Of a DNA stretch of 64,000 bases, positions 32,901 through 41,900 are shown in pieces. The stretch is taken from assembly GCF_056746865.1 (NCBI RefSeq), contig NZ_CM163382.1; one strand, 5' to 3'. Every line of letters begins with the position of its first letter. Position 1 is the first letter of the stretch. Position numbers: made by a program.

Positions 32901-35900
32901 AAACAGCAGTTGATAATTTCACAAGGAGTTCATAAATGCCAACCCCATGTTACATTTCAATTACAGGTCAGACCCAGGGGAACATCACTGCCGGTGCTTT
33001 CACCGCAGATTCTGTCGGCAATATCTACGTGCAGGGACACGAAGATGAAATGCTGGTGCAGGAGTTTCTGCATAACGTTACTGTTCCAACCGATCCACAG
33101 TCTGGTCAACCTTCCGGGCAGCGCGCGCACAAACCGTTCATTTTCACCGTGGCGCTGAACAAAGCCGTTCCGCTGCTGTACAACGCGCTGGCCTCCGGTG
33201 AAATGCTGCCGAAAGTGGAGCTGCACTGGTGGCGTACTTCAGTTGAAGGCAAGCAGGAGCACTACTTCACCACACGTCTTACTGACGCGACGATTGTGGA
33301 CATGAACCTGCACATGCCGCACTGCCAGGACCCTGCACAGCGTGAGTTTACGCAATTGCTCGCAGTATCACTGGCATACCGTAAGGTTGAGTGGGAGCAC
33401 ATCAAATCCGGTACTTCTGGTGCCGATGACTGGCGTGCACCGCTGGAAGCATAAATCTGAGTCAACAACATCCTGCCTTCGTGCAGGATGTTGTTTTTGT
33501 ACGTGTAAAAAATGAGTGTCAGTAAGGAGTTACGCTTTCATGAGGGAGATGGCGGATGCCGGAAACCCGGGCGGTAGCGTACCTGAAAATGTAAAGATGA
33601 GTGTAACGCTGCACTGGCACCCTTTGCTGCATGGTAAGAATCATTTGGTCCGTGAATAAATCAGGGAGGTCATTATGTCCTTAAAAGGTCTGCGCTTTAC
33701 GCTGGAGATTGACGGCCAGGAGCCGGACACCTTTGCAGTGGTGCATTTCAGGTTAATCCAGAACCAGTCTTATCCGTTTGTGATGAGTGTGGATGTTGCC
33801 AGCGACTCTTTTATGCAGACGGCGGAGATGCTGCTGGAGAAGAAGGCGACGCTGACCATCTGGCAGGGCGTCATCCCGCTGCGTTATGTCACCGGCGTGG
33901 TGGCGGGTTTTGGCATGCAGGAGAACAATGGCTGGCAGATGCGTTATCACCTGCGTATTGAGCCGCCGTTATGGCGGTGCGGGCTGCGGCAGAACTTCCG
34001 TATCTTCCAGCAGCAGGATATCCGGACGATATCGGCCACGTTACTGAACGAGAACGGCGTCACGGAGTGGACACCGCTGTTTTATGAGGACCATCCGGCG
34101 CGGGAGTTCTGTGTCCAGTACGGGGAAAGCGACCTGGCGTTTCTGGCGCGGTTGTGGGCGGAGGAGGGAATTTTCTTCTTTGAGCGGTTTGCGGCGGACA
34201 GTCCGGAGCAGAAGCTGACGCTGTGCGACGATGTGGCGGGGCTGTCACAGGCGGGAGAGCTTCCGTTTAACCCGGACACATCGGCAGGAGCGGAGACAGA
34301 GTGTGTCAGTATGTTCCGTTATGAGGCGTATGTCCGCCCGTCGTCGGTGCAGAGCCAGGATTACACGTTTAAGGTGCCGGACTGGCCGGGGATGTATGAG
34401 CAGCAGGGTGAGAACCTGAACGGACAGCTGGAGCAGTATGAGATATTTGATTATCCGGGAAGGTTCAAGGATGAACAGCACGGCAAGGATTTCACGCTGT
34501 ACCAGATGGAGAGCCTGCGCAGTGATGCGGAAAAGGCCACAGGGCAGAGTAATTCACCGAAGCTGTGGCCGGGAACGCGGTTTACGCTGACGGGGCATCC
34601 GCAGAAGATGCTGAACCGTGAATGGCAGGTGGTACAGAGTATTCTGTCAGGGGACCAGCCGCAGGCGCTGCACGGCAGCCAGGGGAGAGGAACCACGCTG
34701 GGAAATCAGTTAGAGGTGATACCGGCGGACCGGACGTGGCGTCCACGGCTGCAAAGCAAACCGAAGGTGGACGGGCCACAGAGCGCCATTGTCACCGGTC
34801 CTGCGGGAGAGGAAATCTTCTGCGACGAACACGGACGTGTGCGAGTGCAGTTTCACTGGGACAGGTATAACCCGGCAACGGAGGCGAGTTCATGCTGGGT
34901 GAGGGTGTCGCAGGCGTGGGCGGGGCCGGGATTTGGTAACCTGGCGATACCGCGCATCGGCCAGGAAGTGATTGTAGACTTCCTGAACGGCGACCCGGAC
35001 CAGCCGATAATCATGGGGCGGACGTACCATGAGGACAACCGTTCGCCGGGGAGTCTGCCGGGGACGAAGACGCAGATGACGATACGGTCGAAGACCTATA
35101 AAGGAAGCGGCTTTAATGAACTGCGGTTCGAGGACGCGACGGACAAGGAAGAAATTTACCTGCACGCACAGAAAAATATGCAAGTCGTTGTGCTGAACAG
35201 CAAGGATAAGCGGGTCAACTATGACCGGACGGTCAGCATCGGGCATGATGAATCCCTGGTGGTGGCAAATGACCGGAAAGTGACGGTTGAAGGTAAACAG
35301 GACCATAAAACCACCAAAGACCATGTCAGCCTGACAGAGGGCAATCAGGGGCTGGAGGTGAAAGGCGATCTGGCACAGAAAATAAGCGGCGCGCTGGGTA
35401 TCAGCGTACAGGGCGATATTGTTTTACAGAGCGACAGCAAAATCAGTCTGCGGGTGGGCGGTTCATTTGTGGTGATCCATTCCGGCGGCGTGGATATTAA
35501 GGGCGCGAAAATCAATCTTAACGGCGGAGGCAGTCCGGGAGACGTGATCCTGCCGATGCGCCCGGTGATCCTGAAAGCCGCAGCCGGAAGCGGGACAATG
35601 TTTGTGGCGCACTGCCCGAAGGAGGATAAGTGATGGAAACGGCACCCGTGCAGTACGCCATTGTGGATGGCGCTGTGGAGGAAGGATTGCTGGATTTTCT
35701 GAACGAGGTGAATCCCCCGCACTGTTGTCTGTATGCAGAACCCATACAACTGGATCTGGTCGCGCTAGCCCCCTATCTCGTGGAAGTCGTTCCGGAGGTT
35801 GAAGCATGGCTGAGTGTTAAGGCGTCGCCATGGGGAATATATCTGACTTCTGAGTCATCCATGCGTGAGCTACAGCAACACTTCAGACGTTATCTGTGGG

Positions 35901-38900: not shown

Positions 38901-41900
38901 TACTCTCACTCTTCTCAAAAGATAATGTGGAGGGAGGGAAAGCCAGAATGCAGCCCATCAGGTGGGACGATTATGCCGTCCGGGTTATGAATGGTGGACG
39001 TATGGTGCAGCTATATAATAAATCGAAACCAATATATTCCCCACTGACTTACCGTTTTACAGATGAAAGTGGTGAAGAGCGTATGGGGTATTACGCTCCG
39101 GTATTTTCGCTGATTGATGGTCAGTTTATCCCTGTTACTTGATTAACCTGTTGGGCTACAAATCAGGATGTCCGGTAAGGTGATTATTACTGAGTTAAGC
39201 ACCTTACCGTTTTTTAAATTTTTTGTCGCTGATATTCCAGACAGGAAAACAATATGCCTTTAGCTGCCAGATTAAACGACAAAGGTACCGGCACAGGGAA
39301 AGATCACGTAACGCTGCTTTTTTGTACTAAATAATTCGCATTTTATGTTTAAAATTTGAGATATTCCTCATTACCTGAGGCTGTTTTTTATTACTTATAC
39401 ATGATCAAATACTCCTTACATAATTAAGGGGAACAAAATGGAACTTAAAAATTGATGGAACATATTTCTGTTATTCCCGATTACAGACAAGCCTGGAAAG
39501 TGGAACATAAATTGTCGGATATTCTACTGTTGACTATTTGTGCCGTTATTTCGGGTGCAGAAGGTTGGGAAGATATAGAGGATTTTGGGGAAACACATCT
39601 CGATTTTTTAAAACAATACGGTGATTTTGAAAATGGTATTCCTGTTCACGATACCATCGCCAGAGTTGTATCCTGTATCAGTCCTGCAAAATTTCACGAG
39701 TGCTTTATTAACTGGATGCGAGATTGCCATACTTCAGATGATAAAGACGTCATCGCAATTGATGGAAAAACGCTCCGGCACTCTTATGACAAGAGTCGCC
39801 GCAGGGGAGCGATTCATGTCATTAGTGCGTTCTCAACAATGCACAGCCTGGTCATCGGACAGATCAAGACGGATGAGAAAACCAATGAGATTACAGCTAT
39901 CCCAGAACTTCTTAACATGCTGGATATTAAAGGAAAAATCATCACAACTGATGCGATGGGTTGCCAGAAAGATATTGCAGAGAAGATACAAAAACAGGGC
40001 GGTGATTATTTATTCGCTGTAAAAGGAAATCAGGGGCGGCTTAATAAAGCCTTTGAGGAAAAATTCCCACTGAAAGAATTAAATAATCCAGAGCATGACA
40101 GTTACGCAATGAGTGAAAAGAGTCACGGCAGAGAAGAAATCCGTCTTCATATTGTTTGCGATGTCCCTGATGAACTTATTGATTTCACGTTTGAATGGAA
40201 AGGACTGAAGAAATTATGCGTGGCAGTCTCCTTTCGGTCCATAATAGCAGAACAAAAGAAAGAGCCAGAAATGACGGTCAGATATTATATCAGTTCTGCT
40301 GATTTAACCGCAGAGAAGTTCGCCACAGCAATCCGAAACCACTGGCACGTGGAGAATAAGCTGCACTGGCGTCTGGACGGTGTGCCGCAGGAACACAAGA
40401 TAGCTGCATAAGGATACGCAGTTAGCTTTTGTATAAGCTCATAAAGAGATGGTGGAAGGCCCACCGGGATCGGCTGTCGGAAGCAGATTCCAAACCACTT
40501 CATGCTGCTGTGGTAAAGAGCCATGGTAGTGAGCGATGAAGTAAAGCGTGAGTGAAAACTCAGCAGGTAAGATACTCATGAGACGAGTGAACCCGAACCC
40601 ATGTTGACGCGTCGTAAACCAGAGACTGACATCAAAACCGAAGGGGCGTCCAGCCTTCGGGATAAGTCTGCGAGTGAATTCCGAATGCTGCGCAGACGGT
40701 GTCCGGCGTAAAGTGGGCGTGACGGAGTATCAGGCTCTTCCTGGGAACTGCGGGAACCTGTCGTTGTGATGATAAGGGAGAAATGCAAGTCACTGAATTG
40801 GCGAGCATGAAAGTACCGATGCACAGCACAGGGACGGAGCCGTTCGTAGTAGTGATGAAGCTTCTGTAATGGAGGTGGAGCGAAGGGGCGGCATCAGACA
40901 GTCTTTGGACAGTGTTCAACTGAACATGTTCAGGAGGAGACAATGACAAAGACAAAAGCGTTTAACATTGATAAGTCACTGGTGGTCAGCGCGTACAGGC
41001 GAGTGAAGACCAGTGCAGGCGCGGCGGGAATTGATAAGCAATCGCTGGCGGACTTTGATAAACGGTTAGTTGATAATCTGTACAAAATCTGGAACCGACT
41101 TTCTTCAGGAAGTTATTTCCCACCGGCAGTGAAAGCGGTGGCAATTCCGAAGAAATTGGGTGGAGAGAGAATTCTGGGTATCCCGACAGTCAGCGATCGT
41201 ATCGCGCAGACGGTGGTAAAACTGGCCTTTGAGCCACAGGTTGAGCCACATTTTCTGGCAGACTCTTACGGCTACAGACCGAATAAATCGGCACTGGATG
41301 CTATAGGGGTAACGCGTAAGCGTTGCTGGTATTACGACTGGGTACTGGAATTTGACATCAAAGGGCTGTTCGATAACATCCCGCACGAACTGATAATGAA
41401 AGCCGTGGACAAACACAATCCGGCCCGGTGGGTAAAATTGTATATACAGCGGTGGCTGACAGCGCCGATGGTGATGTCAGACGGAGAAGTCAGAGCACGA
41501 ACAATGGGAACGCCGCAGGGAGGTGTCATAAGTCCGTTGCTGGCAAACCTGTTCATGCATTATGTGTTTGATAAATGGCTGGCAAAATATTATCCGAAAG
41601 TGCCGTGGTATCGATATGCTGATGATGGCATTTTGCATTGTCACAGCGAAGCAGAAGCGACTGAAATGCGAGAAGTATTACGCAAAAGATTTAGCGAATG
41701 CGGACTGGAAATGCATCCGGAGAAAACGCGAGTTATCTACTGCAAAGATGGAAGCCGGAAGGGTGATTATGAACATACCATGTTCGACTTTCTGGGGTAC
41801 ACATTCAGGCGACGCGTAGTAAAGAACGTTAAGCGAAACAGTCTGTTTGTAAGTTTTACCCCCGCAGCGAGCAAATCAGCGCTAAAGGCAATGCGTCGGG

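Follow-up and report, generated by a model that had tools for sequence, protein, structure and literature searches.

The nearest described counterpart of the locus presented here is the TpeV/TpiV pair from the Aux 4 cluster of Vibrio cholerae (Crisan et al., 2021, mSphere; PMC8386463), which is carried on a mobile auxiliary island with the gene order hcp-vgrG-DUF4123-effector-immunity and a PAAR gene after the immunity gene; this Aux 4 PAAR is dispensable for TpeV killing. Periplasmic TpeV permeabilises and depolarises E. coli (as seen by propidium iodide uptake and DiBAC4(3)), TpiV protects, and V. cholerae Aux 4 kills E. coli. The same study reported TpeV homologues from Salmonella enterica, Citrobacter koseri and E. 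coli, those of E. coli lying near T6SS genes, and its TpeV PHMMER table includes eight A0A0F7L* proteins, six of 531 aa, one of 530 aa and one of 476 aa.

In the uropathogenic strain UMN026, ECUMN_0231 has been proposed as chaperone, ECUMN_0232 as effector and ECUMN_0233 as immunity protein (Casiano Gonzalez et al., 2024, PeerJ; PMC11114119). In wild-type competition UMN026 kills an isolate without these genes and spares an isolate with them, and docking in that study placed the effector N-terminus on the adaptor (S6-C12 and S39-K40) and the effector C-terminus on the immunity protein. More broadly, DUF4123 (Tap/TEC) cargo systems such as Tle1/Tla1, TseL/Tap-1 and VasX/VasW place an adaptor gene next to vgrG, followed by the cargo and its immunity gene, and in their adaptors the N-terminal lobe is conserved while the C-terminal one varies (Colautti et al., 2024; PMC11582642).

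The locus described here lies in a window of 64,000 nucleotides, the whole stretch of DNA analysed, and, on a chromosome of the E. coli 042 type, forms the cargo end of the T6SS cluster adjoining yafV (Table 1). We read it, at a probability of about 0.78, as a TpeV/TpiV-family cargo effector module with vgrG and adaptor; the cassette is intact and functionally coherent, and it belongs to a published family rather than a new one. The gene order is that of TpeV/TpiV and of the other DUF4123 cargo systems, but, unlike TpeV's mobile island, the module stands at the end of a full T6SS cluster on the chromosome. The segment and E. coli 042 (NC_017626.1, 266483-270183) are 100% identical, and of 5426 complete E. 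coli genomes 339 (~6%) carry it, which excludes a chance arrangement of ORFs. The genes are also the same as ECUMN_0231-0233, being identical in length (1,572 and 1,011 bp), in residue numbering and in signal peptide (MKAKHLISVILLSGVVMG).

Table 1. Positions of the cargo module and its parts within the window.
Feature	Position	Strand	Basis
hcp, 172 aa; opens the hcp-vgrG-adaptor-effector-immunity transcription unit	32936..33454	+	ORF
vgrG, 652 aa, cargo-bearing spike protein	33675..35633	+	intact ORF, TIGR03361
DUF4123 (Tap/TEC) adaptor, 279 aa	35633..36472	+	Pfam PF13503, stop/start overlap with vgrG
523-aa effector, whole ORF	36494-38065	+	ORF
Effector codons 1-94, Cys-rich N-terminal domain	36494..36775	+	allele conservation, AF2 beta domain
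Effector codons 95-523, beta-rich TpeV-like toxin region	36776..38065	+	hhalign, AF2 model
Sigma-70-like promoter match	38071..38100	+	consensus scan, effector-immunity spacer
TpiV-like periplasmic immunity protein, 336 aa	38132..39142	+	ORF, Sec signal, hhalign
Intrinsic terminator, operon end	39173..39216	+	hairpin and U-run

An earlier note on this DNA had described the ORFs, the coupling of the adaptor to vgrG, a signal peptide, AT-rich composition and a closing terminator, and each was found where that note had placed it. The vgrG product matches TIGR03361 (gp27/gp5-like core; VgrG/TssI) over model positions 1-513 of 513 (E 2.5e-179), and the adaptor matches Pfam DUF4123 (PF13503) over residues 8-121 (E 2.7e-25) and NCBIfam Tla1 below the family cutoff (E 4.5e-10). 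These two domain matches and the same order in related loci bear out the proposed vgrG-DUF4123 adaptor-effector-immunity layout. The adaptor gene is translationally coupled to vgrG: its ATG at 35633 shares one base with the vgrG TGA (35631-35633) and is preceded by the Shine-Dalgarno sequence AAGGAGGA, and an alternative GTG start at 35630 would give a four-base overlap. The hcp gene is labelled Hcp family T6SS effector in the RefSeq annotation of 042. No PAAR gene was found in the 64-kb window with an ad hoc PAAR profile.

The terminator consists of a hairpin at 39173-39209 followed by the U-run UUUUUUAAAUUUUUU, with a dG of −16.6 kcal/mol and a z of −3.45, and none of 200 shuffles was as stable. 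The sigma-70-like match in the effector-immunity spacer (ATTACA-18-TATAAT) agrees with the consensus at 10 of 12 positions and may possibly act as an independent promoter of the immunity gene; in UMN026, ECUMN_0233 is expressed where the genes upstream of it are silent (PMC11114119). The GC content falls from 0.575 in vgrG, with 0.51 in tssB-E and 0.516 in the whole window, to 0.40 in the effector and 0.47 in the immunity gene. This fall starts within the adaptor gene, near 35900-36100, such that the N-terminal lobe (aa 8-121) has a GC of 0.52 and the C-terminal half 0.39, in keeping with the separate acquisition suggested before for the AT-rich cargo.

The effector has no signal peptide. A motif scan and hydropathy analysis agree with the earlier reading by eye, as GxSxG, HExxH and HxKxxxxD are all absent from the 523 residues and there is no TM helix (highest 19-residue Kyte-Doolittle mean 1.19). 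To the Cys residues already noted at 12, 15, 21, 55 and 65 we add eight more, for a total of 13, with C15, C21 and C65 invariant or nearly so across the effector family. The Lys/Glu-rich stretch previously seen near the C-terminus is a hypervariable loop at aa 456-477, and a conserved C-terminal motif is formed by S491-x-x-R494. The AF2 model, which is of moderate confidence (pLDDT 71.5, pTM 0.63), is mostly beta, with a beta domain at residues 22-97, and the predicted strands show strict hydrophobic/polar alternation throughout the effector family. A Foldseek search with this model matched no characterised structural relative.

The assignment to the TpeV family replaces the 'unknown family' of the earlier note; E. 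coli homologues of TpeV had already been reported (PMC8386463). A phmmer search with the E. coli effector against 1.84 billion representatives returned Vibrio sinus (1.2e-13), Photobacterium damselae (3.4e-11), Photorhabdus (6.2e-8) and Salinivibrio (4.2e-4), and hhalign aligned the E. coli subfamily to the Vibrio/Salinivibrio/Photorhabdus subfamily over its full length (473 columns, probability 100%, E 4.1e-41) and to the 539-aa protein of V. scophthalmi pVS127 with a probability of 97.5% (E 8e-12). The link to V. cholerae TpeV runs via such intermediate homologues and shared accessions, not via direct alignment: A0A380QA02, A0A1C7W8W6, C7BTS6, C7BNV5, U7QQU6 and U7QT07 are common to our Foldseek hits and the TpeV PHMMER table, and Photorhabdus thracensis carries an eight-copy effector array whose lengths (481, 531 and 530 aa) match those of the A0A0F7L* proteins. 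The close homologues of the E. coli effector also come from the very species named by the TpeV authors (E. coli, Salmonella enterica and Citrobacter koseri). TpeV has 535 aa and 11 Cys as compared with 523 aa and 13 Cys in E. coli, and both are without a signal peptide or TM helix. The E. coli and Vibrio-type effector subfamilies share only ~18-25% identity, a distance at which the activity of the E. coli protein may differ from that of TpeV. TpeV goes unmentioned in PMC11114119, which gives the effector 'no conserved domains', whereas here it is TpeV-like.

The linkage to vgrG and DUF4123 that the earlier note had proposed checking is general, as the order vgrG-DUF4123-(PAAR)-effector-immunity is kept in every locus with enough flank, comprising ~30 loci in 10 genera (Vibrio, Salinivibrio, Photorhabdus, Xenorhabdus, Pectobacterium, Lonsdalea, Brenneria, Siccibacter, Buttiauxella and Proteus). 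Unlike the Photorhabdus/Xenorhabdus loci, the E. coli subfamily has no PAAR between adaptor and effector; the MS8324-type E. coli allele, like the TpeV/TpiV locus, has a PAAR gene after the immunity gene. Comparison of the 042-type and MS8324-type alleles gives 91-99% nucleotide identity over effector codons 1-94 and 55-82% over the remainder, with a sharp drop at ~36775, and the immunity gene diverges too. Judged from these two alleles, divergence of the toxin part together with the immunity gene is the pattern of a polymorphic toxin, and the conserved codons 1-94 support the earlier suggestion of an N-terminal loading domain, presumably one serving the adaptor and VgrG.

The 336-aa partner consists of a Sec signal (aa 1 to ~22), a beta-sandwich domain and, at the C-terminus, a domain of NTF2-like (alpha+beta cone) fold, and its Cys41/Cys113 pair is invariant. 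Wherever a related locus reaches beyond the effector gene, the gene that follows is matched by the profile of the 336-aa partner, and hhalign aligns this profile to the partner gene in the Aux4-like cluster of V. scophthalmi pVS127 (probability 99.6%, E 1.8e-23). Immunity arrays and paralogues occur at other family loci, and multiple immunity paralogues were noted near TpeV homologues as well (PMC8386463). A signal sequence is present in all 52 immunity homologues examined, as in TpiV, and this together with the toxicity of TpeV from the periplasm sustains the periplasmic site of action put forward earlier. The protein is taken as a lipoprotein in PMC11114119, whereas the lipobox Cys is not conserved among the homologues. 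We regard the 336-aa protein as TpiV-like, and it would neutralise its cognate toxin, as co-divergence and the TpiV data suggest.

A mechanism consistent with these observations starts from the five genes hcp, vgrG, adaptor, effector and immunity, which are co-oriented, close or overlapping, and closed by one terminator. The allele comparison, and the way in which DUF4123 proteins load other effectors (PMC11582642), suggest that the adaptor would dock on the C-terminus of VgrG with its conserved N-terminal lobe, while the variable C-terminal lobe would hold the conserved Cys-rich N-terminal ~94 residues of the effector; such bridging also seems reasonable in light of the published docking. Firing would then bring the effector to the periplasm of an adjacent Gram-negative cell, where, if it behaves as its V. 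cholerae homologue TpeV, the C-terminal ~430 residues would compromise the cytoplasmic membrane, leading to permeabilisation and loss of membrane potential. The Sec-exported partner would bind the toxin in the periplasm and so shield kin cells, a role suggested because TpiV protects against TpeV, the partner always accompanies the effector and both co-diverge.

How the membrane is damaged is a matter of graded expectation. The cargo falls outside all five DUF4123-adjacent classes of PMC11582642 (Rhs, Tle, alpha/beta hydrolase, MIX and MATE). A Tle phospholipase, prompted by the weak Tla1 match of the adaptor, was rejected, as there is no GxSxG or HxKxxxxD and no Pfam/NCBIfam match, lipase/DUF2235-type families included, and so was an alpha-helical (colicin/VasX-like) pore former, given no hydrophobic segment, no Pfam match and a mostly beta model; structural likeness to a known beta-PFT fold (aerolysin/haemolysin-type) was looked for and not found. 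VasX (colicin-like), Tse4, Ssp6, Tme and Tse5-CT likewise attack the cytoplasmic membrane from the periplasmic side, depolarise it and have envelope-located immunity proteins, but they are helical or have hydrophobic helices whereas the present family lacks a hydrophobic helix and is predicted to be mainly beta, and no sequence or fold match to any of the five was found. A self-assembled pore, possibly of beta type, is tentatively the likeliest single mechanism. It is more doubtful that the TpeV family is the first T6SS effector class to damage membranes via a beta-structured assembly; were this so, the assembly would be built from amphipathic strands of ~20-25 residues predicted within residues 355-458, and the Lys/Glu loop preceding the S-x-x-R motif would set immunity specificity. 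Somewhat less probable again is that the toxin is a periplasm-acting enzyme of new fold, e.g., a lipid or peptidoglycan hydrolase, with the permeabilisation by TpeV secondary to envelope degradation. R181, D328, R347, H441, S491 and R494, and likewise C142, are invariant or nearly so in very distant members and could form a catalytic constellation, and propidium iodide uptake and depolarisation cannot tell pores from lipases or cell-wall damage. Proteins that confer immunity to Tle-type lipases are moreover similar, both in size and in where they reside, to the large ~35-kDa periplasmic immunity protein.

An improbable alternative, raised by the TpeV authors (PMC8386463), is a toxin without pore or enzyme activity of its own that perturbs a resident envelope protein (a porin, an OmpA-like protein or a channel) by binding. 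A polymorphic surface co-diverging with the immunity protein fits a binding protein, and a non-enzymatic Bacteroides T6SS effector is reported to act through OmpA (PMC12541434); however, an OmpA-like or other peptidoglycan-binding Pfam domain is absent from all 35 family members searched, and killing across genera, by V. cholerae Aux 4 on E. coli, argues against dependence on a variable receptor. The least probable reading is that the module is decaying or silent in this strain, or serves host interaction as a UTI marker, rather than interbacterial killing. In its favor, RefSeq calls the 042 vgrG a C-terminally truncated pseudogene, immediately downstream, where MS8324 continues with PAAR-vgrG2-DUF2169, 042 instead has ISAs1-family elements and a group II intron, and the genes have been proposed as UTI biomarkers (PMC11114119). 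Yet the four ORFs are intact, with the identical vgrG annotated as intact elsewhere and, at 652 aa, as long as the functional-looking VgrGs upstream of family members (657 aa in Photorhabdus; V. scophthalmi pVS127 gene 4247-6226). Copies are 100% identical in many unrelated isolates and at least 99% identical in 174 genomes, the UMN026 genes are transcribed in LB and urine with no association to UTI symptoms (PMC11114119), and a periplasmic immunity partner with co-diverging alleles is a signature of antibacterial use.

The same E. coli genes had thus already been proposed as an effector system (PMC11114119) and the family already published (PMC8386463), and two studies that do not cite each other become connected. 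Assignment to the TpeV/TpiV family turns the pairs of 'hypothetical protein' entries carried by 339 of the 5426 complete E. coli genomes into a TpeV-like effector and a TpiV-like immunity protein, and the relabelling extends to many genomes of Salmonella, Citrobacter, Enterobacter, Pectobacterium, Dickeya and Photorhabdus. A concrete candidate activity can also be named for the 'UTI biomarker' genes of UPEC, permeabilisation of the membrane from the periplasm, and E. coli becomes a convenient system in which to solve the membrane-damage mechanism of the TpeV family.

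The module forms the terminal part of a complete T6SS cluster (tssM...tssB followed by hcp and vgrG) abutting yafV, ivy and fadE, and every element that the earlier note had read from the sequence (vgrG, coupled adaptor, two ORFs, signal sequence, terminator and low GC) is present. The operon is co-oriented and coupled, ends in a single terminator, and encodes a DUF4123 adaptor, an effector that lacks a signal sequence and a Sec-exported partner. GC content is 0.39-0.47 in the cargo genes and 0.51-0.58 in the core genes of the T6SS. The change (0.52 to 0.39) lies within the adaptor gene at 35900-36100, between the DUF4123 N-terminal lobe and the C-terminal lobe, a position suggesting that the adaptor's cargo-binding half arrived along with the genes for effector and immunity protein.

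Features of the vgrG-adaptor-effector-immunity operon in the window
Feature	Position	Strand	Properties
vgrG, 652 aa	33675-35633	+	ORF; TIGR03361, E 2.5e-179
DUF4123 adaptor	ATG at 35633, overlapping the vgrG stop codon	+	AAGGAGGA upstream of start; Pfam DUF4123, E 2.7e-25
Effector, 523-aa ORF	36494-38065	+	Cys 12, 15, 21, 55 and 65 plus eight further Cys
Immunity candidate, 336-aa ORF	38132-39142	+	Signal sequence present
Terminator	3' end of operon		Hairpin and U-run; dG -16.6 kcal/mol, z -3.45

The effector/immunity pair can be tied to the TpeV/TpiV family, named after a pair in the Aux 4 T6SS cluster of V. cholerae, where the gene order is hcp-vgrG-DUF4123-tpeV-tpiV-paar (PMC8386463). TpeV has 535 aa and 11 Cys, with neither a signal peptide nor a TM segment; directed to the periplasm, it permeabilised E. 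coli (propidium iodide uptake) and collapsed the membrane potential (DiBAC4(3)), and TpiV, which carries a Sec signal, was protective against it (PMC8386463). For a direct test of homology we used an Aux4-like cluster on the V. scophthalmi plasmid pVS127 (hcp-vgrG-DUF4123-539 aa-332 aa-PAAR). The effector subfamily profile matched the 539-aa protein with a probability of 97.5% (E 8e-12, 450 columns), the immunity profile matched its 332-aa partner with 99.6% (E 1.8e-23), and the E. coli-type and Vibrio-type effector subfamily profiles matched each other with 100% (E 4.1e-41, 473 columns). The last link, to V. cholerae TpeV itself, rests on the PHMMER table of PMC8386463, which has six UniProt accessions in common with the Foldseek matches of the E. 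coli effector AlphaFold model. That table also holds eight A0A0F7L* proteins with lengths matching an eight-copy array in Photorhabdus thracensis, as well as Pectobacterium proteins 535 and 536 aa long, comparable to the relatives that share 39% identity with the E. coli effector. In its discussion the same paper mentions E. coli, Salmonella enterica and Citrobacter koseri as species with homologues.

The genes have also been described in their own right. Casiano Gonzalez et al. (PeerJ 2024; PMC11114119) studied ECUMN_0231, 0232 and 0233 of UPEC UMN026, which agree exactly with the genes in the window in length (1,572 and 1,011 bp), in signal peptide (MKAKHLISVILLSGVVMG) and in the residues cited by the authors (S6, T7, A8, C12, S39 and K40). 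These authors proposed a chaperone/effector/immunity system from context, Bastion6, SignalP and docking, reported transcription in LB and urine, and observed that UMN026 kills an isolate lacking the genes and spares one that has them; no domain was identified in the effector, and TpeV goes unmentioned. The finding holds up as real and its functional interpretation was correct, but the module already figures in two publications, and the earlier note's placement of the effector in an unknown family has to be given up. The papers by Geller et al. 2024 (T6EC1-4) and on TseVF of V. fluvialis proved unrelated to the 523-aa protein, and literature searches with RefSeq protein accessions and old EC042 locus tags returned nothing.

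At 90% identity the close effector homologues fall into 37 clusters, exclusively from Enterobacterales and without exception annotated hypothetical. An exhaustive phmmer search of 1.84 billion representatives with the E. coli effector gave only 50 matches, among them full-length proteins of 17-30% identity from Vibrio sinus, Photobacterium damselae, Salinivibrio, Photorhabdus, Xenorhabdus, Morganella and Providencia. A protein search with another family profile (A3) stayed within the close subfamily and did not include Vibrio TpeV among its matches; a scan of genome contigs with one narrow peptide pattern gave 30 loci, none of them V. cholerae-clade TpeV, and the viral contigs scanned held no relatives. 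Searches of Pfam, NCBIfam and PDB sequences with single sequences and family profiles gave nothing credible for either protein, the matches to APG12 (E 0.03-0.13) and AcrIIA4 (E 0.03) being attributed to chance. In many family members the sequence ends with a PWAMG(S/T)NP motif, present once or twice (C-terminus of the E. coli-type effector alignment), which is duplicated in Pectobacterium and Dickeya and appears in the E. coli 042-type protein only as a degenerate TWTIGMDY. The cluster of one Pectobacterium homologue (P0031) contains a 340-aa member named "IdsF" in UniRef, which hints at a link to the Proteus Ids self-recognition operon.

With an ad hoc HMM for each component (VgrG, adaptor, PAAR, effector, immunity protein), the order vgrG-DUF4123-(PAAR)-effector-immunity was recovered in all related loci whose flanks extend far enough (Vibrio, Salinivibrio, Photorhabdus, Xenorhabdus, Pectobacterium, Lonsdalea, Brenneria, Siccibacter, Buttiauxella and Proteus). 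Additional immunity copies or complete additional pairs are frequent. In P. thracensis DSM 15199 (CP011104.1, about 4,875,647-4,904,991; loci L007/L005/L002) an orphan vgrG-DUF4123-PAAR island within the flagellar gene region carries eight tandem effector and immunity pairs of the TpeV-like family. Effector copies 2-8 share 93-96% identity, with differences concentrated in a Lys/Glu-rich loop (aa 486-506), and the immunity copies share only 63-91%. At least four pairs are present in P. asymbiotica (L027), and in Salinivibrio siamensis (L011) one effector is followed by three immunity-PAAR repeats. Siccibacter turicensis (L029) has two adjoining effector subfamilies, the first followed by three immunity paralogues and the second preceded by a second adaptor, and Proteus mirabilis (L040) has hcp-vgrG-DUF4123-effector (about 620 aa)-immunity-PAAR-immunity. 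The immunity family comprises 193 clusters and the effector family 37, and in several genomes immunity paralogues lie next to each other, a picture typical of immunity arrays. The label "glycosyl hydrolase family 26" on the V. scophthalmi partner was set aside since the protein is a clear homologue of the immunity family. Assignment of the immunity protein as a lipoprotein was likewise rejected: its Cys22 "lipobox" (GTGFC) is atypical and missing from most homologues, where the cleavage site is of the AxA type.

Within E. coli the module is present in 339 of 5426 complete genomes, 174 of them at 99% identity or more, with a second allele at about 80-90%; the segment that carries it in the window matches E. 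coli 042 at 100% identity (NC_017626.1, 266483-270183). RefSeq labels both cargo proteins "hypothetical". In its annotation of 042 the intact vgrG is marked a C-terminally truncated pseudogene, and the immunity gene starts at Met17 (320 aa; window 38132-38179 left out), with loss of the signal peptide that is found in all 52 aligned immunity homologues; both calls are likely annotation errors. Directly past the terminator, at 39275-43776, the window is without the PAAR-vgrG2-DUF2169-PAAR-like continuation of strain MS8324 and has in its place an ISAs1-family (H-repeat) transposase gene interrupted by a group II intron (ltrA, 40943-42193), followed downstream by an intact ISEc1 copy (42640-43776). 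An ad hoc PAAR profile detected no PAAR gene in the 64-kb window.

Nucleotide comparison of the 042-type allele with that of MS8324 gives 91-99% identity over vgrG, the adaptor gene and effector codons 1-94, except for a short stretch of 87-88% within vgrG (34775-34974). At about 36775 (effector codon ~95) the identity drops sharply, to 55-82% over the remainder of the effector and 77-91% over most of the immunity gene, and returns to 95-97% at the terminator (39075-39274). On these alignments, position 36775 is a sharp recombination boundary between the alleles, and it coincides with the end of the modelled N-terminal beta domain (residues 22-97), in support of the conserved N-terminal loading domain suggested earlier. 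This pattern also agrees with the model of adaptor function in Colautti et al. 2024 (PMC11582642), with a conserved N-terminal lobe for binding to VgrG and a variable C-terminal lobe for binding to cargo. The TpeV-like family is not among the five DUF4123-linked effector classes of that study.

From homology and established adaptor biology we infer that the effector would be loaded on VgrG through the adaptor and its own N-terminal domain, that it would be delivered into the target periplasm and there lead to membrane permeabilisation and depolarisation, and that the periplasmic partner would neutralise it. The AlphaFold model of the effector (pLDDT 71.5, pTM 0.63) is predominantly beta and has four strands, each 18-25 residues long, within residues 355-458, and the hydrophobic/polar alternation of its strands is conserved family-wide. 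It is therefore conceivable that the toxin forms its own pore by a beta-type assembly. Alternatively, the toxin may be an enzyme of a new fold or may perturb a resident envelope protein. The motifs GxSxG, HExxH and HxK were searched for in the 523-aa protein and none is present, nor is a hydrophobic helix, and the OmpA-like domain that the TpeV authors had proposed for their protein (PMC8386463) was detected in 0 of 35 family members.

Against AFDB50, Foldseek matched the model to uncharacterised proteins only, namely family members and Bacteroidota proteins of about 860-1080 aa. The matches of this length (E 1e-14 to 1e-4; for example A0A226GVR6 from Flavobacterium, A0A1A9I4X3 from Niabella, and A0A1V2CHL1) include four assigned to Bacteroidota genera (Flavobacterium, Niabella and Pedobacter) and several with no listed organism, and some are annotated with FN3 domains. 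On the strength of these matches, the toxin fold may occur beyond Proteobacteria, fused to other domains. What remains of interest is the mechanism of the TpeV family and its orphan fold, the clean recombination boundary between two alleles, and the striking tandem arrays of Photorhabdus.
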